This document shows, one piece after another, positions 12,261-53,024 of a stretch of 64,000 nt of DNA (positions within the stretch are counted from its first letter, which is position 1; the number at the start of each line of letters is the position of its first letter). The notes under the pieces were generated by a model. The model had not been told where the DNA came from. It saw only the letters and a program-made list of their open reading frames with translations, and did no database searches. The translations under genes and the position numbers were made by a program. Origin of the DNA: a phage; the NCBI GenBank assembly GCA_036253035.1, contig GCA_036253035.1_4123.1; one strand, written 5' to 3'.

Positions 12261-12491
12261 TTAATTACCCTTACATTTATTTTCAATACTATTCATGAGT
12301 TCTTTAAGATAGTTTTTTACCTTACCTGCCTGATAGTTCGTCCCTAGAAAGTTGCACAACTCTGCTTCTATGATTTTGATTTTCCTGATATCAGGCTTCA
12401 ATCTTTTGTTATTGAATATTTGAATCCTTATATCTCTGGATGCATTTAAACGTTTTTGATATTCATGGTAAGTTAAATTAATCATTTTCAT
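12261..12491 (-). CDS. LGTNYQE-family small protein
   Basis: Core FLGTNYQAG; N-terminus MKMINL. Confidence 0.65.
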   Translation of the reverse strand: MKMINLTYHEYQKRLNASRDIRIQIFNNKRLKPDIRKIKIIEAELCNFLGTNYQAGKVKNYLKELMNSIENKCKGN

Positions 12492-12706
12492 TTACGTTTA
12501 ACCTCTCGCTGGAGGGAATCAATTAACATCAGTACCGCATTCTCTTGATAGTTTGTTCCTAAGACTGAAAGCATCTTTATCTCATTTACTAAAATCAACT
12601 TCTTTGAGGGTTCAATAATGTGACTATCATAAACGGCCTTACGTGCTGGATAAGTTTTCGCCAGTATAACATAAAATTCGTCTTTACTTAAATTAATCAT
12701 TTGCAT
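12488..12706 (-). CDS. LGTNYQE-family small protein
   Basis: Core VLGTNYQEN; N-terminus MQMINL. Confidence 0.65.
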   Translation of the reverse strand: MQMINLSKDEFYVILAKTYPARKAVYDSHIIEPSKKLILVNEIKMLSVLGTNYQENAVLMLIDSLQREVKRK

Positions 12707-23644: not shown

Positions 23645-24001
23645 CTAGGATAAAATCATTATAGGATATTCACAGTTAATCAGTACTTCAAAACCAAAAC
23701 TTTCATACCATTCTTTAAGATTAAACTCGTTATCTTCTCCCGTATCGCATTCTAAGATGATACAATCTGAATCATCGGCGGCATCAATAAAGGCATTCAT
23801 TAATTCAGTACCTTCACCGTTACCGCGATTATCGGGATCAACATAAAGAGAATCAATAAACGCTACACGATCATAATCAAGATCCGGTGCAACAATGCCA
23901 CGTTTAACAAACCAGTACTGCAATTGTGCTACTTTGCCTTGTACTTGATAGCCAGTGATCTCACCATTGTCTGTAGTACGCGTGATATGTTGTATACCCA
24001 T
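23645..24001 (-). CDS. putative GNAT-family N-acetyltransferase
   Basis: Motif-A-like SLYVDPDNRGNGEGTELMNAFIDAA; TTGACA-N16-TATAAT upstream. Confidence 0.5.
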   Translation of the reverse strand: MGIQHITRTTDNGEITGYQVQGKVAQLQYWFVKRGIVAPDLDYDRVAFIDSLYVDPDNRGNGEGTELMNAFIDAADDSDCIILECDTGEDNEFNLKEWYESFGFEVLINCEYPIMILS

Positions 24002-24064
24002 GATTTCAATCCTCAGTTAAGATATAAAATATTATACACTAACTAACAGCACTGTCAATACTTT

Positions 24065-24322
24065 TTATCTCATAGATCTATGCCAACAATTACGGGGATT
24101 GCGTTTGAATATGCTATCATGATCAGCCTGGCAAGTGATGCAGTACTTACACCCCTTAACGGCCAGGCGGCGATTCTCAGGGATTTTATCGCCGCAGTCG
24201 AGGCAATGTATCAGTGATTCTATTTGTGCGTTAATTTGCGTTCTAGCGTGGTTTACAGCGGCCTGAATCACTGCGTTAATCTCGTCTTGCTCGGCCCCGT
24301 CCTTCGCGAATCCAACAGCCAT
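24065..24322 (-). CDS. DksA/TraR-family C4 zinc finger protein
   Basis: CLDCGDKIPENRRLAVKGCKYCITCQ = C-x2-C-x17-C-x2-C with IP..RR signature. Confidence 0.65.
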   Translation of the reverse strand: MAVGFAKDGAEQDEINAVIQAAVNHARTQINAQIESLIHCLDCGDKIPENRRLAVKGCKYCITCQADHDSIFKRNPRNCWHRSMR

Positions 24323-24485
24323 TATTTTAACCTCATTATAAAAATACTATAGTACTGTAATGCTACAATAATACTACTAGTACTGATTTTATTCAAACCG
24401 TATGATACTACATATTCCCCAGCATTACCACGAATGGTAACGCCTTTGTACTTTCTATATAATTTCAACTACGTTTATTGCCTTT

Positions 24486-24556
24486 GATCAAGATTTGATC
24501 AGAATTATACGCCTTATGCTAAATTGATCCAGTACTTTTTTGATCATTTATTGATC
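24486..24556. promoter_or_regulatory. GATC cluster (5 sites in 71 bp) in long 5' leader
   Basis: GATC at 24486, 24497, 24526, 24542, 24553; two embedded in TGATCA palindromes. Confidence 0.5.
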
Positions 24557-24618
24557 GATATTATATAGTTACATTTGTGCACCCTATGGGTTAGTGACGT
24601 TCTCGTCTTGATGTAAGT

Positions 24619-24647
24619 ATTATGCCAGTACTGGCATAATTTGTCAA
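24619..24647 (-). promoter_or_regulatory. sigma70-like promoter (TTGACA-N17-CATAAT)
   Basis: -35 at 24642-24647, -10 at 24619-24624; leader contains conserved dyad ACCCATAGGGTGC. Confidence 0.5.
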
Positions 24648-24651
24648 TAGA

Positions 24652-24849
24652 TTATTTTAACTTTTTTCTGTCATTGATTAATGCTTTCAGTACTATACTA
24701 ATGATCTGCAATGATTCATCAATGACTATAAAATTATTTTCTTTCATTAGATGATAGTTACCATTGATTGTATATTCTAAGGAGTACTGTTTACGTTTAA
24801 TTTTTGATAATGTTTCTATTTGTTTTTGTACTGATTTCATGCTAATCAT
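24652..24849 (-). CDS. hypothetical protein (66 aa)
   Basis: Start moved to ATG of MISMKSVQ. Confidence 0.45.
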   Translation of the reverse strand: MISMKSVQKQIETLSKIKRKQYSLEYTINGNYHLMKENNFIVIDESLQIISIVLKALINDRKKLK

Positions 24850-24943
24850 TGTTAAACGTCCTGTAACGCATTCTAACGAGTTAAACGGTTTAGTACTGGC
24901 TAAAGGATTAAAGCCCACCAGCGTTAACCAGTGGGCTATAATC

Positions 24944-25087
24944 TTACATCTTGCGGATAATCTTAACAGTATCTTTCACCGATTTACCGTCTTGCTGACA
25001 TTGTTCGATCATCGCGTATTGTTCTGCGGTCAGATCCTCGCCAGTTTTTGCCAGTACTGCGTCGATGAATGAATCCAGTGCGATCAT
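24944..25087 (-). CDS. hypothetical small protein (47 aa, below track cutoff)
   Basis: Manually translated MIALDSFIDAVLAKTGEDL...; AGAGAG RBS; TTGACA-N16-TATAAT upstream. Confidence 0.4.
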   Translation of the reverse strand: MIALDSFIDAVLAKTGEDLTAEQYAMIEQCQQDGKSVKDTVKIIRKM

Positions 25088-31024: not shown

Positions 31025-31053
31025 TTGACAACTGCATCCAGTACTGGCATAAT
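31025..31053 (+). promoter_or_regulatory. plus-strand sigma70-like promoter (TTGACA-N17-CATAAT)
   Basis: -35 at 31025-31030, -10 at 31048-31053; downstream transcript would carry dyad ACCCACAGGGTGC and end at hairpin 31134-31151. Confidence 0.5.
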
Positions 31054-31059
31054 ACTTAC

Positions 31060-31160
31060 ATAAAGACGAGATAGTCACTAACCCACAGGGTGCATAGATC
31101 CGTCTATTAAATGATTCAGTACTGCAAAATAAAGGGGATCGTTTGATCCCCTCTGTATTA
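31060..31160 (+). ncRNA. candidate small non-coding RNA (~100 nt)
   Basis: Region between plus-strand promoter and hairpin/U-rich tract; no ORF; contains family dyad motif. Confidence 0.3.
31134..31151. terminator. bidirectional terminator hairpin
   Basis: GGGGATCGTTTGATCCCC flanked by A/T-rich tracts on both sides; downstream of minus gene 31158..31379. Confidence 0.5.
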
Positions 31161-39959: not shown

Positions 39960-39995
39960 TGTATTAAATATAGTATAATGAATAAGGAGGGATTT
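39960..39995 (+). promoter_or_regulatory. plus-array promoter-like box (ATAGTATAATGAATAA) plus AGGAGG SD
   Basis: TATAAT at 39974-39979, no convincing -35; same module as between all downstream array genes. Confidence 0.5.
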
Positions 39996-41198
39996 ATGTT
40001 ACCTTTTGGAAGAATGATTAAGTACGCAAATATTGCACCAGGTCCAGAACCTGTAGAGTTCTCAGATGTTTTACAACAACATTATACAAACTGTATGTAT
40101 CTACATAACCCAACTAATACTTTATATGGTTATGGTAGTAATAACATGTATCAATTTGGTCTTGGGAATTCAGCAGCAGTTTCGTCATTTACAGTACTTG
40201 CAAGGAACTGTGCAGCCTTTTGGCTTGGTGTTCAAGGTTCATTGATGATTGATTTGGATAATAAAATATACTACACTGGGTCGGTTGGTGCATTTTCTGA
40301 TTATGGAGATGCAACACCTGTTAATGGTTATTTGACAACATGGACTGATGTTACTGTTGCATTTAATAAAATAGGTGTTATGGCTAATATGATCAAGAGT
40401 GTATATATAGGTGAAAGTACTAGAATATTATTAACCGATGGTAGAGTAATTGCGTGTGGAAGAAATACTAATGGTGAATGTGGCTCTGGTAATAAAAATT
40501 CCATCCCTACACTCACAGTTATGACTAATATGGGTGAAGTTACACATATGGCATGTTCATTACAAGGAACGCACTATATCAAATCAAATAAAGATGCATG
40601 GTTTTGTGGTAAGGATAACTTTGGTGAAAGTGGATGTGGTGGTAGTTCTGTTGTATATTTGAACAAATTCGTGATTAGTAATGTAGAACATATTAGTACT
40701 ACATACGATGTTACTTGGTGGTTTACTACTGGTGGGTCTGTATATTATAGCGGGGTTAACAGTACTGGACAAGCTGGTAATGGTACGACTACATCGGTAA
40801 ATCAGCTAACACCAATTAGGAACACATCGGTCACGGTTGATGTAAGTAAGTACAGTACTTTTATTTGTCCAAGTAATATGGGAAATGCATCAATTGGTGC
40901 ACCTATGGCACAATACGCACCATATGTTAGAAGTAGTGGTGCTAACTCATATGGTCAAGAAGGTAATGGAACTAATACATTAGTTAGAACTTGGAATATT
41001 TTTAATCTTAGTGCAATAAGTGGTGGTTATGACAATGTTCTTATGGCATCTAAAGATTGGAGCAGAACCATAATAATTACTAAAGATTATAAATTATATG
41101 CATGTGGTGGCTGGAATGGAAATGGTGGTAGATTGCCAGATGGCACTTATAGTATTACTACACTAACATTAATGCCAACGCAGTTATGGCAACAATAG
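39996..41198 (+). CDS. RCC1-like beta-propeller repeat protein with conserved N-terminal leader
   Basis: Starts MLPFGRMIKYANIAPGP; repeated G-x-N-x-x-G-Q/E-x-G-x-G motifs; AGGAGG RBS. Confidence 0.8.
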   Translation: MLPFGRMIKYANIAPGPEPVEFSDVLQQHYTNCMYLHNPTNTLYGYGSNNMYQFGLGNSAAVSSFTVLARNCAAFWLGVQGSLMIDLDNKIYYTGSVGAFSDYGDATPVNGYLTTWTDVTVAFNKIGVMANMIKSVYIGESTRILLTDGRVIACGRNTNGECGSGNKNSIPTLTVMTNMGEVTHMACSLQGTHYIKSNKDAWFCGKDNFGESGCGGSSVVYLNKFVISNVEHISTTYDVTWWFTTGGSVYYSGVNSTGQAGNGTTTSVNQLTPIRNTSVTVDVSKYSTFICPSNMGNASIGAPMAQYAPYVRSSGANSYGQEGNGTNTLVRTWNIFNLSAISGGYDNVLMASKDWSRTIIITKDYKLYACGGWNGNGGRLPDGTYSITTLTLMPTQLWQQ

Positions 41199-41206
41199 GA
41201 GGGAAT

Positions 41207-42316
41207 ATGTTACCTTTTGGAAGAATGATTAGGTATGGAAATATTGTCCCTGGTCCTAAAAAAATAATTAAAGTTGGTGCTTCTACCCAAGGCCAATTCT
41301 TATTGACTGATTCACATGATTTATATTACATAGGTAGAAATCAAGGTGGTGAATCTGGAAATGGTAATACCAACACGGTGTCTTCGTGGACATTAGTAAG
41401 TGCAGATGTTTCTAATTTTTTCGTGGGTGATCGTACACTTGTTATTATTAAAAATGATAATACGATATGGACATCAGGTCAAACGTACTGGTTCTCATCT
41501 TCTACAACTACTTCTTACAGTACTGTATTAGTTGAAAGAACTAATTGGTTTACCAATGCTATACCAGTAAGTGAAATTGCTAATATTGTATGTACAAATG
41601 GTTTAATATTTGTACTTAGCACTAATTCAGTACTCTATGGTGCAGGAGATAATGGATATCGTGGTTCTTTGGGTATTGGTTCCTCATCAATTTACACATT
41701 AACTCAATGTGCTACGAACGTTCGTAAAGTAATGACCAATGCGAATGATAGTATGTATCTTACATTAGATAATAAGCTATATAGTTCTGGATGGAATAGT
41801 AGTGGGCAGCATGGTACGGGGAACCAAACACAAATTAACACTTGGGGATTGCGTAGTTCTGGTGTAATCGATGCAGCCATTGGTGGTAATGCATTAAATT
41901 ACTATAATGGTACATCATATTTCGTATGTGGTCAAACTCCAAACTTTCTTAGTTCAGGCACGACTACATTCCGTGCCGTTCCTGTAAGTACTTTGCCTAA
42001 TAGTTCTCCGTTGTTTATGACGAATTCACCTGCCTTAAATACTGCTACACAAATGGTAATTACTAGTACATATCAGAAGGGTGTTGGGGCGAACCGTGGT
42101 TTGGGATTAAACAATTCTCAAACTGGTGCTATATATAGTGCTACCAATTTACAATTACCCGTTGAAGTTAGTGAGATTAGGGATGTTCTTTTTAGTGATG
42201 GTTTGACATCGATATTAACCAAAAATGGAGATGTGTATAGTACTGGATCGTATTACGCCATTCCAGGTGCAATCGAGGATGTTGCAGTCTTTACTAAAAT
42301 TGATTTACCAAAATAA
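41207..42316 (+). CDS. beta-propeller-like repeat protein with conserved N-terminal leader
   Basis: Starts MLPFGRMIRYGNIVPGP; Gly/Ser/Thr/Asn-rich repeats; coupled to upstream gene. Confidence 0.8.
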   Translation: MLPFGRMIRYGNIVPGPKKIIKVGASTQGQFLLTDSHDLYYIGRNQGGESGNGNTNTVSSWTLVSADVSNFFVGDRTLVIIKNDNTIWTSGQTYWFSSSTTTSYSTVLVERTNWFTNAIPVSEIANIVCTNGLIFVLSTNSVLYGAGDNGYRGSLGIGSSSIYTLTQCATNVRKVMTNANDSMYLTLDNKLYSSGWNSSGQHGTGNQTQINTWGLRSSGVIDAAIGGNALNYYNGTSYFVCGQTPNFLSSGTTTFRAVPVSTLPNSSPLFMTNSPALNTATQMVITSTYQKGVGANRGLGLNNSQTGAIYSATNLQLPVEVSEIRDVLFSDGLTSILTKNGDVYSTGSYYAIPGAIEDVAVFTKIDLPK

Positions 42317-42387
42317 CATAATGCCAGTACAGAGTACTGGCTTTCTTATTTGTATTAAATATAGTATAATGAATAAAGGAGGGAAAT
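42317..42387 (+). promoter_or_regulatory. intergenic module: terminator hairpin, T-run, TATAAT box, AGGAGG
   Basis: Hairpin GCCAGTACAGAGTACTGGC 42323-42341 + T-run; TATAAT 42365-42370. Confidence 0.6.
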
Positions 42388-43527
42388 ATGTTACCTTTTG
42401 CAAGAATGGTTAAGTACGGGAATATCGCACCTGAACTGATTCTACCTAAAAACAGGTTACAATGTTCTGCTGATGCCAAATTTTATTTACACACAAATGG
42501 CAATCTATATTGGTTTGGTTCTTCAGCATATGGACAAAGTGGTAATGGTTCATTGGACTCTTCAACTGAATGGACTCTTGTCAACTCAAATGTTACACGA
42601 TATTGGGGTGGGGTACAAGGAACAATTGCTATAAAGAAAGATGGTACTATTTGGTACACTGGTAGACGTACTGTTATTCCAATACTATCTTCAAACACTA
42701 ACGGCGTTTGGGTTGATATAACACAGAACTTTACTGATTTCGGTGTCAGTGCAGATGATATTGATAGTGTTGTGATATCTTCGTGTATGCGTGTATTTTT
42801 AAAAAATGGAAAGTGGTTCTACTGTGGTGCTGGTACTGGTGGTGTTTTTGGGAATGGATCAACTTCAAGCGTTTCACGATTCACCTATAGTACAATAGAA
42901 AATGTTATCAGTGCTGGTTGTGCAATATATAGTACTGGATTAGTACTAAATGATGGTTCATATTGGTATGCAGGTAGAACGTTTGTATCAGGAACGACGA
43001 CACAAAACTTGCTCACATTTACACAAGATACTTCGATTAGTAATGCAATTAAAGCAGTCAATACAAATGAAACTTCTTATATATTTCTTAATGATGGTAA
43101 TGTTAAAGTTGCATCTATTAACGACTATGGACAAGCAGGTACAGGAAATAGGTCAGTAGCCCCAATGAGTACATTAATTCCAAATTTATCATTCCAAGGA
43201 GAAGTGGAGTTGGTGGGTGAGCTTGGGACAAACCTTACCGGACCATCCTGTATAATTAATAATAATAATAAGTTATTTTCATGTGGCCTTAATTCAAATG
43301 GTCAATGTGGTATTGGTACAACTGATATGTATATAACATCATTCGCTGAAATGGATCTTACTGCATTAGAAGGTAGTAATCTTAGTAGTTTTTGTAAGAG
43401 CTATTCTTATACGATGTTAGTTGACGAATATAATAATTTATACACATGTGGTGTACCCAATCTTACTGGAATGTCTTCAACTACTGTACCAACAAGGGTT
43501 CCTGATTCACTTCTACCGTGGAAATAA
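42388..43527 (+). CDS. RCC1-like beta-propeller repeat protein with conserved N-terminal leader
   Basis: Starts MLPFARMVKYGNIAP; YGQSGNGS, YGQAGTGN, NGQCGIGT repeats. Confidence 0.8.
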   Translation: MLPFARMVKYGNIAPELILPKNRLQCSADAKFYLHTNGNLYWFGSSAYGQSGNGSLDSSTEWTLVNSNVTRYWGGVQGTIAIKKDGTIWYTGRRTVIPILSSNTNGVWVDITQNFTDFGVSADDIDSVVISSCMRVFLKNGKWFYCGAGTGGVFGNGSTSSVSRFTYSTIENVISAGCAIYSTGLVLNDGSYWYAGRTFVSGTTTQNLLTFTQDTSISNAIKAVNTNETSYIFLNDGNVKVASINDYGQAGTGNRSVAPMSTLIPNLSFQGEVELVGELGTNLTGPSCIINNNNKLFSCGLNSNGQCGIGTTDMYITSFAEMDLTALEGSNLSSFCKSYSYTMLVDEYNNLYTCGVPNLTGMSSTTVPTRVPDSLLPWK

Positions 43528-43598
43528 TATAATGCCAGTACACTGTACTGGCTTTCTTATTTGTATTAAATATAGTATAATGAATAAAGGAGGGAAAT
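43528..43598 (+). promoter_or_regulatory. intergenic terminator/promoter/SD module
   Basis: Hairpin 43534-43552 + T-run; TATAAT 43576-43581; near-identical to 42317 copy. Confidence 0.6.
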
Positions 43599-44747
43599 AT
43601 GTTACCTTTTGCAAGAATGATGAATTATGGGAATATTGCCCCTGGTAAGGATAGGCGTTTTAAAATATATTCAAGTGATTCTATGTATCTCCATGATACT
43701 TATACTAATAAGTTGTATGCATCTTCTGCGACGAATTGGGGTACTGGTACAGGTGTAGCATCGAGTAAATTTATTCTTTGTGCAGAGAATGTTAAACGAG
43801 TTCTATTGGAAGATAACAGTAGTAGTTGTCAAATGTATGAAGAGAAAGGTACTGGAAAAGTTTTTATCACTGGTAACACGAAGGCATTCACTGGTGTAAC
43901 TGATACAAAAACTTTGTGGACGGACTGTACTACGTGGATAACATCAGGTGGTATTAATGTTTCTGATATAAAATACATGAGTAGTTTTAATGATATGAAG
44001 GTGAATTTGATAACAAACGATGGTACGTTGTATTGTTGTGGAGTTAACAATAACTCGAACCTATCATCATTTGGTGATGGTACAAACATTAATTCTTTTA
44101 ACACATTCAAAAGGGTAGATACTATAACTTCGGTTAAAAAGGCAGTTGGTAACATATACCTAAAAGAAGATAATACTTTATGGGGTTGTGGTTTTAACTA
44201 TTACTATCAGTTAGGTACAGGTAATCAAACTTCTATTACTGGGGTGACGATGATTGCTTCAGATGTTATAGATTTTGATGTAAGTTATCAGAGTACATTT
44301 TTTATTAAATCGGATAATAATTTGTACGCTTGTGGTAAACAGTTCGGTGCACAATACGGGAACGAATTTGGCACAGGTGGTACTTCTTCATCTACCGATA
44401 TACAATACAAAACTCCGACATTATTGAGTTCAGGAGTTTATACTCTATATACGTGTGTTAGTAACATGGCATCACATATAGCTAAAGGTGATGAAGTTCT
44501 ATACGCATCTGGGTCGAATGGATTTGGTCAATTAGGTGTTGGTAATAATATTAATCAGTACTCATATACTCCTTCGTATACTTCGTTTAATAGTTCGTGT
44601 AATTTGGTACGCACTCCATCTGGTTCACTTATACTTACGGACACTGAGCAATTATATTATTGTGGGTATGCTATGGTAGTAATGGGGGGAATTGCTGGAC
44701 AAAACATTCTTAGTTATACAGAAGTTGATATGTCATTTATACAATGA
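43599..44747 (+). CDS. RCC1-like beta-propeller repeat protein with conserved N-terminal leader
   Basis: Starts MLPFARMMNYGNIAP; close paralog of 46888..48036. Confidence 0.8.
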   Translation: MLPFARMMNYGNIAPGKDRRFKIYSSDSMYLHDTYTNKLYASSATNWGTGTGVASSKFILCAENVKRVLLEDNSSSCQMYEEKGTGKVFITGNTKAFTGVTDTKTLWTDCTTWITSGGINVSDIKYMSSFNDMKVNLITNDGTLYCCGVNNNSNLSSFGDGTNINSFNTFKRVDTITSVKKAVGNIYLKEDNTLWGCGFNYYYQLGTGNQTSITGVTMIASDVIDFDVSYQSTFFIKSDNNLYACGKQFGAQYGNEFGTGGTSSSTDIQYKTPTLLSSGVYTLYTCVSNMASHIAKGDEVLYASGSNGFGQLGVGNNINQYSYTPSYTSFNSSCNLVRTPSGSLILTDTEQLYYCGYAMVVMGGIAGQNILSYTEVDMSFIQ

Positions 44748-44818
44748 TTTAATGCCAGTACTCTGTACTGGCTTTCTTATTTGTATTAAATATAGTATAA
44801 TGAATAAAGGAGGAATTT
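44748..44818 (+). promoter_or_regulatory. intergenic terminator/promoter/SD module
   Basis: Same ~70-bp module. Confidence 0.6.
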
Positions 44819-46006
44819 ATGTTACCTTTTGCAAGAATGATGAATTATGGGAATATTGCCCCAGTACCACTTCAAATTAAGAAAATAATCCCAACTGATT
44901 TAGATGTTGTGGTTCTGTATACGGATGGTCAACTATATGCACGTGGGAATAATAGTTTTGGGAAATTCGGTAGAGGAAACAACACTGCATTAAAATCATG
45001 GACATTAATTAGAGAAAACGTTAACGATTGCTGGCTTACACAAGGAACTTTATTAGTAAAAGACAATGACTCAAATTATTATTACTGTGGATATGGTAGT
45101 CATATTGGTTTATCAACTAGTACTACTACGTTTTTAAGTTATAACCAATATATTCAAAATTTGTACACACAAAGTTCAAGTACTTCAATTAAACAGATGT
45201 ATGGAGGTACTACGTGGTTTACTGTGTTAATGGATAATAATACAATATGGAGTACAGGGTGGAACAGTGCTAGACAATTCGCAGATGGTACAGGAACTAC
45301 TTATGAAATAACCGATGGTTCATTTGTAAAAGCGGTCACACCTAATGTTGATATTGCACAAATACAGTCAACAAATAACTGTGTATTGTTGTTTGATAAA
45401 CAAAATAATTTATATATTGGTGGTGTTACATCCGGTATAAGTTCCGCGACTACATGGACTTCATATAATGAATATACTTTATATCAACCAAATACAACAT
45501 ACACAAAAACGTTACAATACACAGGATGCTCAACTGGTGCAGTAAGTGCTTTAGTTGAAAATCCAAATACAGGAGCACGTCAGTTCCTTGTCGGTGGGTT
45601 AGCTAATAATGGGGCATGGGGAAATAACACTACATCTAGCTCTGTTAATGGAGTTTTAGGAAATAACAGTACTACGTTACCACCCGGTACTTTGTATTCA
45701 ATTCATACTGGATACCCACCACAATCTAGTATACTAATTACGAGTACTGGTGTATATGCAACTGGTTTAAATGCCAGTAGTTATGCTGGTTCATTGGGTA
45801 TTGGTACTAGTGCAACTGTTGGTAAGTTTACTGCATGTCCAATGCCTACACAAATAACATATTCTATGTATGATAAAATAAAAATATATAGAGGTTCATA
45901 TCGTACATTTCTAACTGATATGAAAAATATATATTCAACCGGAACTTATGATGATGGTGGTCCTAGTACAACTAGATATGTACTAGATACACCCCGACAA
46001 TTATAA
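44819..46006 (+). CDS. beta-propeller-like repeat protein with conserved N-terminal leader
   Basis: Starts MLPFARMMNYGNIAP. Confidence 0.8.
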   Translation: MLPFARMMNYGNIAPVPLQIKKIIPTDLDVVVLYTDGQLYARGNNSFGKFGRGNNTALKSWTLIRENVNDCWLTQGTLLVKDNDSNYYYCGYGSHIGLSTSTTTFLSYNQYIQNLYTQSSSTSIKQMYGGTTWFTVLMDNNTIWSTGWNSARQFADGTGTTYEITDGSFVKAVTPNVDIAQIQSTNNCVLLFDKQNNLYIGGVTSGISSATTWTSYNEYTLYQPNTTYTKTLQYTGCSTGAVSALVENPNTGARQFLVGGLANNGAWGNNTTSSSVNGVLGNNSTTLPPGTLYSIHTGYPPQSSILITSTGVYATGLNASSYAGSLGIGTSATVGKFTACPMPTQITYSMYDKIKIYRGSYRTFLTDMKNIYSTGTYDDGGPSTTRYVLDTPRQL

Positions 46007-46078
46007 TATAATAGCCAGTACTCAGTACTGGCTTTTCTTTTTGTATTAAATATATTATAATGAATAAAGGAGGGAATT
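46007..46078 (+). promoter_or_regulatory. intergenic terminator/promoter/SD module
   Basis: Same module (variant). Confidence 0.55.
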
Positions 46079-46816
46079 ATGTTACCTTTTGGAAGAATGA
46101 TTAAGTACGGGAATGAAATTGAATATAAGCCACATGGTGAACAATTAATCACGACAATAGGAACAACACAATTTACAGTTCCTGCTGGCGTTACCGAAAT
46201 ATCAGTATGTGTTATTTCGCCGGGTGGTCAACGTGGTGCTGGCGGCGGCTTATCGTGGCGTAATAATATTCCGGTTACTAGTGGTGAGTACTTAAGTGTT
46301 TCTCTTACACATCCCAACACTACTACAGCAGTTGAAAACGGTTTATATCGTGGAACTGAAAAACTATGTGTTAGCTTCACTGGTGAATATAGGGTTGGTG
46401 GACTAGGTGGGAAAGCTGCTAACGCTATTAATGATGGTGGTGGTAATGGGGGCAACGCTGGTGTAAGTGGTGGTGCAGTCATTGGTGGTGGTGCTGGTGG
46501 CTACACTGGTAAAGGTGGTAACGGAGATGCAATCACTGGTGAAAATGGTGCTGGCGGCGGCGGTGGTGGTGGTGCATTCTATAATACCTCGTTCATTGGT
46601 ACGGGTGGTGGTACTGGTATCATTGTTCAAGGTGCTAATGGTATTGGCGGTAGATACGATGGTTCATATAATGGTGGTGCTGGTAGTGGTGGTGCTGGTA
46701 AGATGTATGGTGGTGGTGGTAGTATATGGGATAATTTTTCTTATACGGCTGCTGGTGGTGGTGCTGTGCGAATAATATGGGGACGTGGGAGATATTATCC
46801 TAACAATTCAGTCTAA
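46079..46816 (+). CDS. glycine-rich repeat protein with conserved N-terminal leader
   Basis: Starts MLPFGRMIKYGN; C-terminal two-thirds dominated by GGxGG/GGAGG repeats. Confidence 0.75.
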   Translation: MLPFGRMIKYGNEIEYKPHGEQLITTIGTTQFTVPAGVTEISVCVISPGGQRGAGGGLSWRNNIPVTSGEYLSVSLTHPNTTTAVENGLYRGTEKLCVSFTGEYRVGGLGGKAANAINDGGGNGGNAGVSGGAVIGGGAGGYTGKGGNGDAITGENGAGGGGGGGAFYNTSFIGTGGGTGIIVQGANGIGGRYDGSYNGGAGSGGAGKMYGGGGSIWDNFSYTAAGGGAVRIIWGRGRYYPNNSV

Positions 46817-46887
46817 AATATAGGCCAGTACTTGATACTAGCATTCTTATTTGTATTAAATATAGTATAATGAATAAGGAGGGAAAT
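46817..46887 (+). promoter_or_regulatory. intergenic terminator/promoter/SD module
   Basis: Same module. Confidence 0.55.
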
Positions 46888-48036
46888 ATGTTACCTTTTG
46901 TTAGAATGATTAAGTACGGGAATATTGCACCTAACCCGCCTGATCCTAGTACACGTTTTAAAATATATTCCGGCGGTAGTGCTATGTATTTTCATGATAC
47001 ATACACGAAAAATTTGTATGCATCAGCGGCAGTCAGTCAGGGTACTGGAACTGGTGTTTCGTCGAGTAAATTTATTCTTAGTGCGACTAATGTTAAAAGA
47101 GTCCTTTTGGAAAATAACAGTAGTGGTTGTCAATTATATGAAGAAGACGGTACTGGAAAAGTGTTTATAACTGGAAGTCCGAGTGCGTTTTCTGGTTCAG
47201 GTGCATATTATAACACGTGGACAGATTGTACTTCATGGATAACATCCAGTGGTATTAATGTTTCTGATATAAAATACATGAGTAGTTACAGTGATCTTAA
47301 AGTGAATTTGATAACAACTGATGGTACTTTATATTGCTGCGGAACAAACAGCACATCAACCAGATCATCTTTTGGTAATGGCACAAATACAAATTCATTT
47401 AACGCCTTTGTTAAGATTGAAGCCATATCATCGGTAAAAAAAGCTGTTGGTAACATATACCTAAAAGAAGATAATACATTATGGGGTTGTGGTATTAACA
47501 CTTACTATCAGTTAGGGACAGGCAATCAAACTGCTAGTACTGGAGTTGTTAGAATACAGACTAATGTTATAGATGTCGATGTAAGTTATCAGAGTACATT
47601 TTTTATTAAAGATGATAATAAATTGTACGCTTGTGGTACACAATATGGACTATCATATGGTAATGAATTCGGCACAGGCACAACACTTAAGCAATACACA
47701 ACACCAACTTTATTGAATTCGGATGTACAGAATATATACTGTTGTGTTGGTAATATGGCTTCACATATTCTCAGATTTGGGACTACAATATTTGCAACTG
47801 GGGTTAACACTGGTGGGCAATTGGGTGTTGGTAATCTTACAAATCAGTTCTATTATACCAAGTCTTATGAAAATTTTAATAGTTCTTACAGTTTAGTACT
47901 GAATAACATCGGTAGTTTGATTCTCACAGATGAAGGTAAGTTATTTTATACTGGTTTTTCCAATCTAGTAATGGGTGGAAGTTCTGGGCAGTACACTACA
48001 AGATATACCGAAGTTGATATGTCATTTATACAATGA
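46888..48036 (+). CDS. RCC1-like beta-propeller repeat protein with conserved N-terminal leader
   Basis: Starts MLPFVRMIKYGNIAP; paralog of 43599..44747 (both end ...YTEVDMSFIQ). Confidence 0.8.
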   Translation: MLPFVRMIKYGNIAPNPPDPSTRFKIYSGGSAMYFHDTYTKNLYASAAVSQGTGTGVSSSKFILSATNVKRVLLENNSSGCQLYEEDGTGKVFITGSPSAFSGSGAYYNTWTDCTSWITSSGINVSDIKYMSSYSDLKVNLITTDGTLYCCGTNSTSTRSSFGNGTNTNSFNAFVKIEAISSVKKAVGNIYLKEDNTLWGCGINTYYQLGTGNQTASTGVVRIQTNVIDVDVSYQSTFFIKDDNKLYACGTQYGLSYGNEFGTGTTLKQYTTPTLLNSDVQNIYCCVGNMASHILRFGTTIFATGVNTGGQLGVGNLTNQFYYTKSYENFNSSYSLVLNNIGSLILTDEGKLFYTGFSNLVMGGSSGQYTTRYTEVDMSFIQ

Positions 48037-48107
48037 ATTAAAGCCAGTACTTGATACTGGCATTTCTTTTTGTATTAAATATAGTATAATGAATAAAGGA
48101 GGGAATT
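48037..48107 (+). promoter_or_regulatory. intergenic terminator/promoter/SD module
   Basis: Same module. Confidence 0.55.
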
Positions 48108-49271
48108 ATGTTACCTTTTGCAAGAATGGTTAAGTACGGGAATATAGCACCAGCACCACCGAAATTTAAAAAAATACTCGCCAATAACTACAACGTTGCA
48201 GTTTTAACAAGCAGTGGGGATTTATATGTACGTGGTCAGAATTCAAATGGTCTTTTGGGTTTAGGTCACAAAGAAACCGTTACTACATGGACGTTAAGTA
48301 CTTCTGGTGTTGAAGATTTTTGGTTAAGTACCACTTCTTTGGTTATTAAGAAATTCAACAATGAAATATGGTACAGTGGTTCGTCAACTACTGTTGGTAT
48401 GACAGGGGCAGCCGTATCAGTGTGGACTTCTGCTATGCCAACATTCAATACATTAACATTACCAATATTAGATATGGCAGTTAGTAATCAGACTACAAGT
48501 GTATTACTTTCAGATCGAACAATATGGAGTACTGGGGCAGGGGCAGAAGGTCAGTTAGGTAATGGGACAACAACTAACAACGTTAATACTAAATTCGTCC
48601 AGAGCACAGTCTCTACTGAAGAAGACCAATTACCATTTAAATTGTTTGCAAGTAATCTAATGCATGGTTATGTTACTGCTAACGGTTGGTTATACTATAC
48701 AGGCCGTGTCAATGCAATTAGCACTAGTGGTACTTCTCTATATACAGTATACACTAGTGCTCCTACGAGTCTAAGGAGTGTAATTAATATCGAGTACTAT
48801 GTAAATAATAACAATTCAATGGCGATGGCTATTGGTACTGATCCAAATGGAAAAACCATAATTGCCAATGGTGGGGCGAAAAGATTTGGTGCACAGGCAG
48901 ATGGAGTGAATAGTACTGATATAAGAGCATTTGCTGTTCAAACTGCTTCCCTAATGCCACCAGGTGATGTACTCAGTATGGCCCATAATACTTCATATTA
49001 TAACCAAGTTATTGCTACAACAGATGGTATATATTGTTGTGGCTACAACCAATCAACACAAGCTGGTATGTTAGGTGTTGGTACATCTACTAACGCATTA
49101 GTATATACCAAAGCAATCGTACCTGATGGTTTTGATTATAGTAAATCACAAATGTCAGGTGGGTATAACCGTACTTATATAACTGATGGTAATTTTGTAT
49201 ATAGTACTGGGGCTGATGTCACATATGGTGGTATTAATAGCTTAGTATTTGTAATAGATTCACCATTTTAA
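48108..49271 (+). CDS. RCC1-like beta-propeller repeat protein with conserved N-terminal leader
   Basis: Starts MLPFARMVKYGNIAP; ends ...SLVFVIDSPF like the frameshifted copy. Confidence 0.8.
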   Translation: MLPFARMVKYGNIAPAPPKFKKILANNYNVAVLTSSGDLYVRGQNSNGLLGLGHKETVTTWTLSTSGVEDFWLSTTSLVIKKFNNEIWYSGSSTTVGMTGAAVSVWTSAMPTFNTLTLPILDMAVSNQTTSVLLSDRTIWSTGAGAEGQLGNGTTTNNVNTKFVQSTVSTEEDQLPFKLFASNLMHGYVTANGWLYYTGRVNAISTSGTSLYTVYTSAPTSLRSVINIEYYVNNNNSMAMAIGTDPNGKTIIANGGAKRFGAQADGVNSTDIRAFAVQTASLMPPGDVLSMAHNTSYYNQVIATTDGIYCCGYNQSTQAGMLGVGTSTNALVYTKAIVPDGFDYSKSQMSGGYNRTYITDGNFVYSTGADVTYGGINSLVFVIDSPF

Positions 49272-49342
49272 AAAGAATGCCAGTACTTGATACTGGCTTT
49301 CTTATTTGTATTAAATATAGTATAATGAATAAGGAGGGAATT
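49272..49342 (+). promoter_or_regulatory. intergenic terminator/promoter/SD module
   Basis: Same module; track ORF start lies inside it. Confidence 0.55.
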
Positions 49343-50494
49343 ATGTTACCTTTTGGAAGAATGGTTAAGTACGGGAATATTGCACCAGTTCCGGTAGTTC
49401 CTACAATAAAAGATTTTAAGATTGGCTTTTCACATGAAGTGTTATTGGACAGTGAAGGTGATGTGTGGGGTATTGGATATAATACCGCTGGTCAGTTGGG
49501 ATTTCTGGACGCTAACACAAATTCAATAGGAATGTGGTCTAAGATACATGAGAATGTTAGATTAATTGGCGTTACTACCAATTATACTGTAGTTGTTACA
49601 AATGATAATAGAATACTTTACGCCGGAAATAACTTAATTTCTAGTACTACAACGCTTGGGTGGAACGATATAACGTCTAGTATGGGAGCGGTTGTAGTGG
49701 ATAGCATCGATGCATTATATTGCACAGATGGCATGATGCATATTAAAACTGCTGATGGTTCTTTATACGCATATGGACGTAATATGAACGCAAACGCTGG
49801 AGTTACTGGTGTTTCTGGAGTTATTAGTGTTGCAACTAAAGTTAGTGGTTTACCATCGGCTGTGAAAGATATACGATATACGTTTAGTTATGGTACAATA
49901 CTATGTCAATTAGATACCACCTCGGTATATGGATGGGGAAGAAATGTCAATGGTGAATTAGGTCAGGGGAACGCAGCCGCAGTTCCTACCCCATCCCAAA
50001 GGGCGGGTGCTTCTATTGCTATAGGTACTTCGTATAATGCTACTGCAATTGTTTCCGGTACTGCATCGTTGGTTACATGTGGTGGACAAAATGATGGTCA
50101 GTTAGGTAATGGTATTACTACTGCTGGTAATGTATACACATATGGTGCTAGAGCATACCCAAGCGATCTTAATAATATAAGAAGTCCAGTGGATTGCAGT
50201 ACAACTTATACATCTGCATTTATGAGTCCAGATGGCATATATTACACGGGTTCGAACCGAAGTGTGTTTGGTGGTCCGAGCGGGGCTGCCACTGTTGCAT
50301 TATATACCAAATGTAGTGATTTACCAATATTATATTCTAATATAACACAGTGGTGTAGTGGTACTATTGGTGGTGCGATATGTAGCAGTACTGAATTATA
50401 TCAGTGTGGGACCGGTAGATACATTGCCGGAGATGGGCAGAACGCAACTAGGTATGGGTTTAGAAAGACACCATTACCTTGGGATGTTTATTGA
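49343..50494 (+). CDS. RCC1-like beta-propeller repeat protein with conserved N-terminal leader
   Basis: Start moved to MLPFGRMVKYGNIAP after AGGAGG. Confidence 0.8.
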   Translation: MLPFGRMVKYGNIAPVPVVPTIKDFKIGFSHEVLLDSEGDVWGIGYNTAGQLGFLDANTNSIGMWSKIHENVRLIGVTTNYTVVVTNDNRILYAGNNLISSTTTLGWNDITSSMGAVVVDSIDALYCTDGMMHIKTADGSLYAYGRNMNANAGVTGVSGVISVATKVSGLPSAVKDIRYTFSYGTILCQLDTTSVYGWGRNVNGELGQGNAAAVPTPSQRAGASIAIGTSYNATAIVSGTASLVTCGGQNDGQLGNGITTAGNVYTYGARAYPSDLNNIRSPVDCSTTYTSAFMSPDGIYYTGSNRSVFGGPSGAATVALYTKCSDLPILYSNITQWCSGTIGGAICSSTELYQCGTGRYIAGDGQNATRYGFRKTPLPWDVY

Positions 50495-50566
50495 CATAAA
50501 GCCAGTACTCAAGTACTGGCATTTCTTTTTGTATTAAATATAGTATAATGAATAAAGGAGGAATTT
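50495..50566 (+). promoter_or_regulatory. intergenic terminator/promoter/SD module
   Basis: Same module. Confidence 0.55.
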
Positions 50567-51742
50567 ATGTTACCTTTTGCAAGAATGGTTAAGTACGGGA
50601 ATGTTAAACCAGCACCTTCGGGTGTACTGAAGATTGCTACATCTACAACACATGTGGGTATGTTGTTCGATAGTGGCAATTTATATCTACGTGGTAATGG
50701 TGCACAATATAGGCTAGGAAATGATAGTACTGCGTATTTACAAAATGGATGGATACAGTGTCCATATAAAGTTGCTAATGTTTGGTGTTTATCCGCAGGG
50801 ACCATTATACTTACGACTGAAGGAGAATTTTACTTAGCAGGACAAATGGGATACCTTGGTGTGGTCAAATCGCCTGTTCCAGGATGGACAAATATTACAT
50901 CAATATTGTCTACAATACCAAGCCTTACTACAGTTCAAGATATAGCTTCTACTGAGACTGTCGCTTCAAATGGTACTTTATTAATTATGTTAAGCAATGG
51001 TGATTTATACGGGATAGGTAGTAATACTGGAGGTGAACTGGGTGTTTCTGGTGCAAAAGCGACACCGATTAAGATTGATACTGGTGTTACTATGATTGCT
51101 GGTACACACTTTGGTGGTGCTTTACATTATGTTAAAAATGGTCAATATTACAGATGTGGTAATAACGCAAGTTATAACCTAGGTACAAGTGCATCTAAAC
51201 TATCCACATTTACAGTAAGTACTGATATATCTGGAACAGTTATTGGTATTTCATGTACTAATTTGACGACTTCAGTACTTACATCGAATAAGGGTAATAT
51301 TAGAGTATATACTGCTGGGATAAACACTGATTATTGTTTAGGAATTGGGTATGGAGACACGAAGGTTACAATGAGTCCATTTAGTGCTACTCCCGAAATT
51401 AGTGGTATTATACCAGATGCTGGGTCGATGAACAATCACAGTTTGAATTATTTTATAATGGCAATGACACAGAATGGTAAACTTTATACATGTGGTAGTG
51501 GTGTTCCTCTTGGTTGGCCTGTTACTACTGCATCAGAAAGATCTTATTACCACCAGGTACAATATGAGGATATGGATGTTGCACCAGATGTTAATGCATT
51601 TTCAGTTCAAGGTGGTTCTGGTGTGTTATACGCGTTAGTGGGGACTAATGAGGTGTACTGGTGTGGTAACGGGTCTATGTTTCAGGAACAGAGTCCAGGT
51701 ACACAACAAGTTAAAATGAAGAAAATGATTTTACCAGAATAA
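50567..51742 (+). CDS. beta-propeller-like repeat protein with conserved N-terminal leader
   Basis: Starts MLPFARMVKYGNVKP. Confidence 0.8.
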   Translation: MLPFARMVKYGNVKPAPSGVLKIATSTTHVGMLFDSGNLYLRGNGAQYRLGNDSTAYLQNGWIQCPYKVANVWCLSAGTIILTTEGEFYLAGQMGYLGVVKSPVPGWTNITSILSTIPSLTTVQDIASTETVASNGTLLIMLSNGDLYGIGSNTGGELGVSGAKATPIKIDTGVTMIAGTHFGGALHYVKNGQYYRCGNNASYNLGTSASKLSTFTVSTDISGTVIGISCTNLTTSVLTSNKGNIRVYTAGINTDYCLGIGYGDTKVTMSPFSATPEISGIIPDAGSMNNHSLNYFIMAMTQNGKLYTCGSGVPLGWPVTTASERSYYHQVQYEDMDVAPDVNAFSVQGGSGVLYALVGTNEVYWCGNGSMFQEQSPGTQQVKMKKMILPE

Positions 51743-51826
51743 AATGTGAAATACAATGCATGTACTCTGTACTGGCTTTTCTTATTTATATTAAATATAG
51801 TATAATGAATAAAGGGGAGTAAAATT
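51743..51826 (+). promoter_or_regulatory. intergenic terminator/promoter/SD module (variant)
   Basis: Hairpin variant + TATAAT + AAGGGGAG. Confidence 0.5.
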
Positions 51827-53014
51827 ATGTTACCTTTCGGAAGAATGTTTGATTATGGGAATATTAAGCCTGTACCTGAACCTGAAGAGTTTGATGAAGT
51901 TTTACAGCAACAATATTACAATACACTATATTTGCATAAACCCACTAATACATTATATGGGTACGGATTAAACAGTAACAAACAGCTTAGTTTATTAATT
52001 GTACCTACTGAATTTATGGTACTGAGTACTGATTGTAAAAAATATTGGACTGGTGTGTTTGGTACATTGATGGTAAGTCTTTCGAACAAAATATACTACT
52101 GTGGTAGTAGAATTGCGTTCCCACAAGCGACTACCGCATCTAACACCGATGGGTGGAAATATGTAACTGAGTACTTTGACGCTTTAGGTGTAGTTGGTGA
52201 TGATATTAAGAGTGTATATATAGGTGCGAGTACTAGAGTATTATTAAATGATGGTCGAGTTATGTGTTGTGGTAACAATGCTTATGCTGAATGTGGTACG
52301 GGTGTTACTGGAGCAATTAATACTTTACAATTTGTACCACAATTTGGTACTGATGTAAAGAGTATGTATTGTTCGACATATGGTACGCATTATATTAACT
52401 CCAGAAACGAATCATATTTTGTTGGAGAAAATACAAATGGTACTAGTGGTACTGGAACTGCTAATGATTCTATTGTAGCTGCACATACATTAACTGCACG
52501 TAACGTAAAACACATTAGTACTAATTACAATACGACTTGGTGGTTTTTTGAAAATGGTGATATATATTGGTGTGGTCTGAATAATATGGGTCAGGCTGGT
52601 AATAATAGTGTTACTAGTGGGTATACGTTGTTAGCTGTTAAGAATACTGTACTTTCTGGTACAATTGATCTCCCGACATTGAAATCTCCTAGTAGTTTAT
52701 CAACGGGCTATGTGGGAGCACCAATTGCTTCATATTCATCACGAATTAGAAATGGTGGAATAAATGATCTTGGTCAACTAGGGTTGGGTACAATAACACC
52801 GTTCGAACGATCATGGATAGATATGAATATTAGTATTATTGGTACATATGATGATGTATTGACAATATCCAAAGATATTAGATCATCAATGATATTAACA
52901 AAAGATTATAAATTATATGCATGTGGTGGATATAATTCAAATGGTCAATCATTACCTGATGGATCATATGTTACCAGTACATTAAAATTAATGGCAAATA
53001 TGCCGTGGTATTAA
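51827..53014 (+). CDS. RCC1-like beta-propeller repeat protein with conserved N-terminal leader
   Basis: Starts MLPFGRMFDYGNIKP; paralog of first array gene 39996..41198. Confidence 0.8.
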   Translation: MLPFGRMFDYGNIKPVPEPEEFDEVLQQQYYNTLYLHKPTNTLYGYGLNSNKQLSLLIVPTEFMVLSTDCKKYWTGVFGTLMVSLSNKIYYCGSRIAFPQATTASNTDGWKYVTEYFDALGVVGDDIKSVYIGASTRVLLNDGRVMCCGNNAYAECGTGVTGAINTLQFVPQFGTDVKSMYCSTYGTHYINSRNESYFVGENTNGTSGTGTANDSIVAAHTLTARNVKHISTNYNTTWWFFENGDIYWCGLNNMGQAGNNSVTSGYTLLAVKNTVLSGTIDLPTLKSPSSLSTGYVGAPIASYSSRIRNGGINDLGQLGLGTITPFERSWIDMNISIIGTYDDVLTISKDIRSSMILTKDYKLYACGGYNSNGQSLPDGSYVTSTLKLMANMPWY

Positions 53015-53024
53015 GGAGAGAGAT

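Follow-up and report, generated by a model that had tools for sequence, protein, structure and literature searches.

The open reading frame at positions 24065..24322 (minus strand) of the window, the 64,000-nucleotide stretch of phage DNA analysed here, is a real, functional and conserved gene of the DksA/TraR family. Judged by sequence comparison, the nearest characterised relative of its product, the zinc-finger protein, is YbiI rather than TraR or DksA. The protein probably binds the host RNA polymerase (RNAP), and on balance we favour the view that it is a TraR-like effector of the RNAP secondary channel that would shift transcription initiation independently of ppGpp. The family label was already known, and the kind of mechanism is established in other phages: reprogramming of host RNAP by phage TraR-like proteins was shown for lambda, P2 and Vibrio phages (PMC9239242). 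The zinc-finger protein and its relatives in T4-like phages, however, sit in the uncharacterised YbiI branch, and the part of the protein that would lie near the active site is altered.

The reading frame runs from an ATG at 24322-24320 to a TAA at 24067-24065 and fills the interval exactly, encoding a protein of 85 amino acids (MAVGFAKDGAEQDEINAVIQAAVNHARTQINAQIESLIHCLDCGDKIPENRRLAVKGCKYCITCQADHDSIFKRNPRNCWHRSMR). The preliminary description had recognised in it a DksA/TraR-type C4 zinc finger with a C-x2-C-x17-C-x2-C pattern and an IP-x-x-RR signature, and had proposed a profile search as a check. In this search the protein matched Pfam family PF01258 (zf-dskA_traR) with an E-value of 2.2e-11 and 44 bits, where the gathering score is 24.9, and PHROG 54, ‘DksA-like zinc-finger protein’, at 7e-19. 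The pattern corresponds to C40-x2-C43-x17-C61-x2-C64, and the signature to I47-P48-E49-N50-R51-R52. Eight key positions (C40, C43, I47, P48, R51, R52, C61 and C64) are invariant among 34 homologues and E49 is nearly so, while two further cysteines, at 58 and 80, are non-conserved or clade-specific. Both the family and the motif were thus borne out, the former by profile, sequence-to-PDB and fold evidence alike.

The window derives from an Asteriusvirus jumbo coliphage that is 121Q-like. The 3 kb around the zinc-finger gene are 97% identical to 121Q and 90-93% identical to many coliphages of 350-385 kb. The zinc-finger protein and 121Q gp294 have 100% identity, and the latter is named ‘DksA-like zinc-finger protein’ in RefSeq and ‘C-4 type zinc finger protein’ in GenBank; the family assignment is therefore right, yet it was already on record. 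Homologues of equal length with 60-75% identity were found in many T4-like phages of enterobacteria, whose hosts include Escherichia, Klebsiella, Enterobacter, Citrobacter, Yersinia and Kosakonia. In Dhakavirus VR5 the homologue belongs to the rI-mobD block and starts at an ATG that overlaps the MobD.3 stop codon. A PADLOC search for defence and anti-defence functions returned no matches for the zinc-finger protein or for the products of the two flanking frames described below, a 48-aa ORF and a GNAT acetyltransferase gene.

The gene is short, and one relative, CMSTMSU, carries a frameshifted copy, so that a chance reading frame or a decaying remnant with a fortuitous cysteine pattern might be considered. 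This copy, which comes from an UNVERIFIED record, is the sole exception among the siblings. The Pfam match at 2e-11, the presence of a Shine-Dalgarno sequence and a coupled start codon, and the conservation at 60-75% in distant T4-like phages all speak against such an origin. In addition, dN/dS against eight sibling genomes is 0.09-0.20, indicating purifying selection. The selection and conservation data already refute this explanation, to which we assign a negligible probability.

In order to place the protein within the family, we compared the results of searches against solved structures and curated subfamily models. Among solved structures, E. coli YbiI (2KGO, 3e-11) is the closest in sequence, with residues 1-69 aligned; TraR in its RNAP complexes (5W1S and 6N57) comes second at about 1e-5. 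The NCBIfam models rank the branches as the sequence-to-PDB search does, with YbiI first, and no curated cut-off is reached. The YbiI equivalog (NF008243/PRK11019) scores 79.2 against a cut-off of 96 and covers only residues 1-71, leaving the C-terminal tail unmatched. The corresponding scores are 50.1 against 59.7 for the TraR subfamily (TIGR02419), 30.4 against 108 for the TraR equivalog (NF010268) and 13.7 against 105 for DksA (NF033459).

The N-terminus, MAVGFAKDGAEQ, is near-identical to the YbiI-type sequences MAGGFAKDGAVQ or MASGWANDDAVN, and includes the signature MA-x-G-[FW]-x-x-D-G-A-x-Q. The C-terminal tail of the phage clade, FKRxPRNCWHRSMR, is invariant and stands where YbiI has YNRRGSKDSQLR. 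The termini of the zinc-finger protein are more conserved than the surface of the zinc knot, and both differ from TraR. A search of a representative protein library yielded 522 matches with E-values up to 1e-3, 17 of them up to 1e-10; this library holds one sequence per 50%-identity cluster, and the whole phage clade falls into a single representative. Its one addition was the metagenomic protein P0063, which ends in ...NRKVWHRSMR and has a tail intermediate between the YbiI and the phage types. The literature search on YbiI found one sentence (PMC2613031). No literature was found on the phage clade, and the genome papers of fEgEco12 and Sharanji are silent on the gene.

The structure of the zinc-finger protein was predicted with AlphaFold2 from an alignment of 34 sequences, at moderate confidence (mean pLDDT 70, pTM 0.38). 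In the model, one long helix (residues 5-32) precedes the zinc knot, and a short helix (62-68) is followed by a basic tail of low confidence (pLDDT about 50). When it was compared with the PDB using Foldseek, the top matches were YbiI and TraR-RNAP, followed by DksA-RNAP; the TraR-RNAP matches had target-normalised TM-scores of 0.59-0.61 and an rmsd of about 4 A. In a library of viral structures, DksA-like phage proteins were found at the top. The preliminary description had tied its assignment to a predicted architecture of coiled coil and zinc finger. In the AlphaFold model the zinc-finger architecture is present and the two-helix coiled coil of DksA is absent. This half-agreement is still compatible with the family, because TraR-type members have a single N-terminal helix, and the predicted architecture is TraR-type: the long helix N-terminal to the zinc knot, which would serve as the secondary-channel probe, is present in the model.

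Three functional regions of TraR have been defined in published work. A DxxDxA tip lies near the active site and a C-terminal helix on beta Si1, and in the globular domain R48, R49 and E46 touch the beta' rim helices and Si3 (PMC6970531, PMC9239242). TraR R48, which contacts the rim helices, and R49 and E46, which contact Si3, correspond to R51, R52 and E49 of the zinc-finger protein. The tip reads F5-A-K-D8-G-A10 (FxxDxA); all members of the clade have Phe or Trp where DxxDxA begins with Asp. When YbiI-type and TraR-type proteins are aligned together, D8 falls into the column of the second Asp, which is at least 90% conserved, and A10 into the column of the Ala (D6 and A8 of TraR). From D8 to the first Cys, members of the clade have a spacing of 31-33 residues, versus 31 in TraR, and two additional residues precede the tip on its N-terminal side. 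A counterpart of the C-terminal helix is not clearly visible in the model. In characterised homologues, substitutions of D3 and D6 cripple lambda Orf73, the absence of D3 in X. bovienii Gp34 is associated with weaker activity, and a suggested cause of reduced activity in VHML Orf8 is its N-terminal extension (PMC9239242). The zinc-finger protein thus retains the residues used for anchoring, along with part of the probe of the catalytic site, but is no canonical TraR.

The zinc-finger gene lies within a long run of small ORFs on the minus strand. We found 34 promoter-like sites in the window that match TTGACA-N16-18-TATAAT at 11 or more of 12 positions; 29 of these lie at 4-37 kb on the minus strand, and the sequence that follows their -10 element is AT-rich, typically AGTTTACATCAA. 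The gene upstream (24652..24849, minus strand) encodes a 65-aa protein and corresponds to 121Q gp292 (phrog_36844). Downstream, a perfect promoter, TTGACA-N16-TATAAT (24031..24058, minus strand), begins 7 nt past the zinc-finger stop codon and precedes a GNAT acetyltransferase gene (23645..24001, minus strand). No terminator was found between the zinc-finger stop and this promoter, and none was predicted nearby. In vB_Ec-M-J the zinc-finger homologue (12349-12606) is located inside an annotated direct terminal repeat of 21,525 bp. In the related phage CBB, a concentration of RpoD-like promoters ahead of short hypothetical ORFs was read as the early region (PMC5259590). Given the promoter-rich block of small ORFs, the terminal repeat of vB_Ec-M-J and the parallel with CBB, it is plausible that the zinc-finger gene is expressed early, as the preliminary description had placed it.

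The stop codon of the upstream gene, at 24652, is separated from the zinc-finger ATG by 329 nt, which the preliminary description took for an unusually long, GATC-rich leader. The GATC cluster is there, with five sites in 71 bp (24486-24556). A plain leader it is not: the interval is an insertion/deletion segment with a promoter and a 48-aa ORF. We aligned ten genomes, of which eight bear the segment and two, phAPEC6 and Sharanji, are segment-less. The segment of 330 bp (24321..24661, minus strand) is bounded by 11-bp direct repeats, GTTAAAATAAT, at 24651-24661 and 24321-24331. It is carried by 121Q-type and PBECO4-type phages. In phAPEC6 and Sharanji, where it is missing, the TAA of the upstream gene overlaps the zinc-finger ATG, which couples the two genes directly. 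EC22.5-2 and UE-S1 match in two pieces at 65% coverage, like the segment-less phages. The block that contains the zinc-finger gene has further gaps of 220-320 bp in the 121Q annotation.

At its upstream end the segment carries a putative sigma-70-type promoter, TTGACA-N17-CATAAT (24619..24647, minus strand; 11/12 matches, TG-extended), that is kept in all segment-bearing relatives and has a 12-bp palindrome, GCCAGTACTGGC, in its spacer (24624-24635). It is followed by a conserved transcribed box, GACGAGAACGTCACTAACCCATAGGGTGCAC (roughly 45 nt; 24577..24612, minus strand). The downstream part encodes the 48-aa ORF (24322..24468, minus strand), which has a TTG start and corresponds to 121Q gp293 (phrog_38664). 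Its TAA (24324-24322) overlaps the zinc-finger ATG as TAATG, a layout typical of translational coupling. The dN/dS of this ORF is 0.09-0.25 overall and 0.22-0.25 against PBECO4 and CRJP21 at a dS of 0.8-0.9; on the strength of such low values despite this divergence between 121Q-type and PBECO4-type phages, we count it as a real gene. A Shine-Dalgarno sequence, GAGG (24331..24334, minus strand), lies 8 nt before the zinc-finger ATG, within the 3' end of the 48-aa ORF; the same position reads AAAG in phAPEC6 and AAGG in Sharanji. No terminator was found between the promoter of the segment and the zinc-finger gene. With its dedicated strong promoter, its better Shine-Dalgarno sequence and the overlapping 48-aa ORF, the segment probably raises the expression of the zinc-finger gene.

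Other regulatory candidates in the region were considered and rejected. A structured leader RNA is not indicated, as the folding of 24465-24613 (z = -0.58) resembles that of shuffled sequences and only two short GATC hairpins are formed. An Rfam search over 23900-25000 gave no match to a riboswitch or other known RNA at E ≤ 1. By inspection, the TATAAT at 24335-24340, in the conserved 3'-terminal part of the 48-aa ORF, lacks a usable -35 element, and transcripts that started from it would miss the Shine-Dalgarno sequence.

The five GATC sites (24485..24556, minus strand) all read GATCAA on the gene strand and form the densest such cluster of the window. Five sites within 75 bp arose in 2 of 300 first-order Markov simulations; a window-wide enrichment was dismissed, with 147 sites observed versus 170 expected. 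Two inverted repeats, GATCA-N5-TGATC (24542-24556, minus strand) and TGATCAA-N3-TTGATCA (24485-24501, minus strand), account for four of the five sites and form two AT-rich hairpins. Between them lie a lone GATC (24526-24529, minus strand) and a TATAAT with a weak -35 element (24504-24509, minus strand). Each of the eight genomes with the segment keeps the three sites on the 5' side; PBECO4 and CRJP21 have lost the last two. Compared by eye, the GATCAA repeats do not fit the consensus of IHF sites or DnaA boxes. Sharanji was reported to encode an N6-adenine methyltransferase (PMC11895373).

The first ~85 bp of the segment, comprising the promoter and the box, have a paralogue in the 5' part of a free-standing unit at 31025-31155 (plus strand). 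This unit is made of promoter, box and hairpin, ends in the hairpin GGGGATCGTTTGATCCCC and is kept in the Alcyoneusvirus phages RaK2, K64-1 and KP13-7. It is small-RNA-like, and covariation in it is weak, with a double change in 1 of 12 pairs. Both GATC hairpins of the segment share an 11-bp GATC spacing with the terminator hairpin of the unit. We infer that the GATC richness reflects hairpin palindromes that descended from this terminator or resemble it. On this reading the segment hairpins would have lost the GC clamp, so that transcription would continue through the 48-aa ORF to the zinc-finger gene.

In the mechanism that we favour, the zinc-finger gene would be transcribed by the host-type (sigma-70) promoters of the early terminal-repeat region. 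The acidic N-terminal helix (residues 5-32), with D8 and A10 at its tip, would enter the secondary channel of E. coli RNAP, and the Cys4 zinc knot with its invariant I-P-x-x-R-R would dock on the beta' rim helices and Si3. Initiation kinetics would then be altered in the absence of ppGpp, as by TraR of the F plasmid and lambda Orf73. Host promoters with short-lived open complexes, such as those of rRNA and ribosomal protein genes, would be turned down, and the near-consensus phage promoters with AT-rich discriminators would be spared, so that polymerase would be shifted to phage genes. The gene, its family and fold type, the conserved contact residues, the selection, the promoter context and the insertion/deletion are shown by the analysis, and binding to the polymerase, the direction of the effect and its timing are what we infer. 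Points against this mechanism are the tip without the first Asp and its two-residue extension, a C-terminal segment modelled as a clade-specific basic tail of low confidence and not as a TraR-like helix, the scores under all curated cut-offs and the moderate confidence of the model. Precedents come from five phage TraR homologues that bind RNAP and regulate transcription, among which lambda Orf73 increases phage yield 3-4 fold (PMC9239242). For the YbiI branch, high-level YbiI was stated to rescue the auxotrophy of a dksA-null strain (PMC2613031, where the data are not shown).

That last statement bears on a different reading of the same contacts, by which the zinc-finger protein would plug the channel as an antagonist, excluding DksA-ppGpp and GreA/B and not mimicking TraR. 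Host RNAP may then be deaf to the stringent response that an infection can set off, and rRNA synthesis and translation capacity would be kept up for the phage. The FxxDxA tip in place of DxxDxA, together with the two-residue N-terminal extension, would suit a plug, as would the retention of the residues that contact the rim helices and Si3; moreover, TraR homologues with imperfect tips match TraR in RNAP binding but regulate more weakly (PMC9239242). Overexpressed YbiI, on the other hand, rescues the loss of dksA rather than mimicking it (PMC2613031, data not shown there). D8 and A10, the equivalents of the most critical tip residues of DksA and TraR, are conserved, and this counts against a plug because an inert one would have no need of them. 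We therefore regard an antagonist as quite improbable.

A role away from RNAP was also weighed, in which a YbiI-type zinc ribbon would serve in the handling of Fe or Zn, or would engage nucleic acid or another partner from phage or host through its invariant termini (MAVGFAKDGAEQ... and ...RNCWHRSMR). It draws on the best relative being YbiI, a protein without an assigned function that is encoded in an iron-regulated operon (PMC2613031), on termini that are better conserved than the zinc-knot surface and differ from TraR, and on the curated subfamily thresholds that the protein misses. All characterised PF01258 members of this architecture nevertheless act on RNAP. The RNAP-contacting IPxxRR residues are invariant and the acidic long helix is kept at a TraR-like length, and we consider a function independent of RNAP unlikely.

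Within the favoured assignment to the secondary channel, the YbiI-type clade, with its [FW]xxDxA tip, two-residue extension and invariant basic tail, might represent a functionally distinct class of secondary-channel effectors of strictly lytic T4-like and jumbo phages, encoded in the earliest-expressed terminal-repeat DNA. We put this forward as a doubtful, speculative extension. The effect of such a class could differ from that of TraR and DksA, either as a plug that blocks the stringent response or as a stronger ppGpp-independent shut-off, and, if the class were real, it would provide the first mechanism for chromosomal YbiI. More generally, the phage proteins of the YbiI branch bear on host takeover by lytic phages through the secondary channel and on the role of YbiI. 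Phages with the segment (121Q-type) and without it (phAPEC6-type) offer a natural comparison for the tuning of the expression of such a factor, and the correct annotation of the presumed leader avoids confusion with a regulatory untranslated region.

Among known systems, YbiI resembles the zinc-finger protein most closely. It is the best match by sequence, the top Foldseek match and the best NCBIfam model; the two share the N-terminal MA-x-G-[FW]-x-x-D-x-A-x-Q, the IPxxRR zinc knot, the length class (85 versus 88 aa) and a basic C-terminal tail with S-x-[LM]-R at its end. They differ in that YbiI is chromosomal and belongs to an iron-regulated operon (PMC2613031), whereas the phage gene is driven by promoters of a phage early type. 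The phage tail, FKRxPRNCWHRSMR, also departs from the YNRRGSKDSQLR of YbiI, and the phage protein scores under the equivalog cut-off.

TraR and its phage homologues (lambda Orf73, P2 Orf82, VP882 Orf61 and VHML Orf8) have ~30% identity to the zinc-finger protein. They have in common with it a single N-terminal helix and a Cys4 zinc knot, the CxxC-x17-CxxC spacing and I-P-E-x-R-R, and like it they are encoded on phages or mobile elements of proteobacteria with an RNAP that contains Si1 and Si3. In contrast to TraR, the zinc-finger protein lacks the first tip Asp (D3 of TraR) and has two more residues at its N-terminus, and the long C-terminal helix that reaches beta Si1 is not predicted in it. 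Furthermore, the homologues studied come from temperate phages or a plasmid, while the zinc-finger protein belongs to strictly lytic jumbo and T4-like phages. With E. coli DksA (151 aa) it shares the Pfam zinc-finger domain, and DksA-RNAP complexes (7KHI and 5VSW) are among its fold matches. It is, however, about half the size of DksA and has neither the two-helix coiled coil nor the C-terminal helix, and a TraR-like behaviour would be expected to make it independent of ppGpp.

The 85-aa zinc-finger protein of the DksA/TraR family is encoded at 24065–24322 on the minus strand, and directly downstream on the same strand lies a gene for a 118-aa GNAT-family acetyltransferase (23645–24001, phrog_1249) that has its own perfect promoter, TTGACA-N16-TATAAT. 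Most Asteriusvirus relatives that were examined keep the two genes adjacent; in Sharanji and PBECO4 another annotated ORF is found downstream of the zinc-finger gene. The zinc-finger gene of phage CMSTMSU (MH494197.1, 846–1103; an UNVERIFIED_ORG record) carries a frameshift after residue 37, which is probably a sequencing error and not the mark of a pseudogene.

The 5′ part of a free-standing unit at 31025–31155 on the plus strand recurs as a duplicate within the segment that precedes the zinc-finger gene (24321–24661, minus strand). This unit contains no ORF, is antisense to the genes around it, and is made up of a promoter of the form TTGACA-N17-CATAAT, the conserved box GACGAGATAGTCACTAACCCACAGGGTGCA and the hairpin GGGGATCGTTTGATCCCC. 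It is kept in Asteriusvirus and in the Klebsiella Alcyoneusvirus phages RaK2, K64-1 and KP13-7. Salmonella phage 7t3 and Klebsiella phage fENko-Kae01 also share its core, CACTAACCCAYNGGGTGC. Folding of the unit gave z = −3.0 and covariation was weak; no Rfam family was found for it. We consider it a candidate phage small RNA.

Likeness between near-consensus promoters extends past both hexamers. Many of those on the minus strand between 16871 and 35627 share a conserved start region, TATAAT-A(G/T)TTTACATCAA. Because several are near-identical copies (e.g. 16871 and 17188; 28622 and 28917), their sequences suggest that promoter and gene units of this minus-strand region were duplicated.

Another shared element is the hexamer AGTACT, which is absent from the first 7.5 kb of the window and occurs 237 times in the remainder (7558–64000), where base composition predicts about 22 copies. 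The heptamer CAGTACT is found 217 times versus 8.6 ± 3.3 expected, a count that none of 100 shuffles reached. AGTACT appears in three settings. Half of the 34 promoters with at least 11 of 12 matches to TTGACA-N16-18-TATAAT (17 of 34) are early-type promoters with the hexamer in their spacer, either as TTGACA-N9-AGTACTG-TATAAT or ending in AGTACTGG-CATAAT. A second setting is the stem of terminator-like hairpins, for example GCCAGTACT-N-AGTACTGGC with a T-run after it; the third is coding sequence, where AGTACT has a density of about 2.7 per kb. Several of the ~70-bp spacers in a plus-strand tandem array of about 15 similarly sized ORFs (39978–57290; roughly 300–400 aa each) combine an AGTACT hairpin terminator with a TATAAT. 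Annotation of the 121Q genome describes the counterparts of these ORFs as RCC1-like ‘regulator of chromosome condensation’ proteins.

The zinc-finger gene belongs to a block of small early-type genes, at about 15100–36700, that is homologous to positions 1–21525 of phage vB_Ec-M-J (OQ718158.1). In that phage the stretch is annotated as a direct terminal repeat of 21.5 kb; by this homology, the genes of the block would be present in two copies per packaged genome. In fENko-Kae01, a box element related to that of the 31025–31155 unit also lies inside the terminal repeat.
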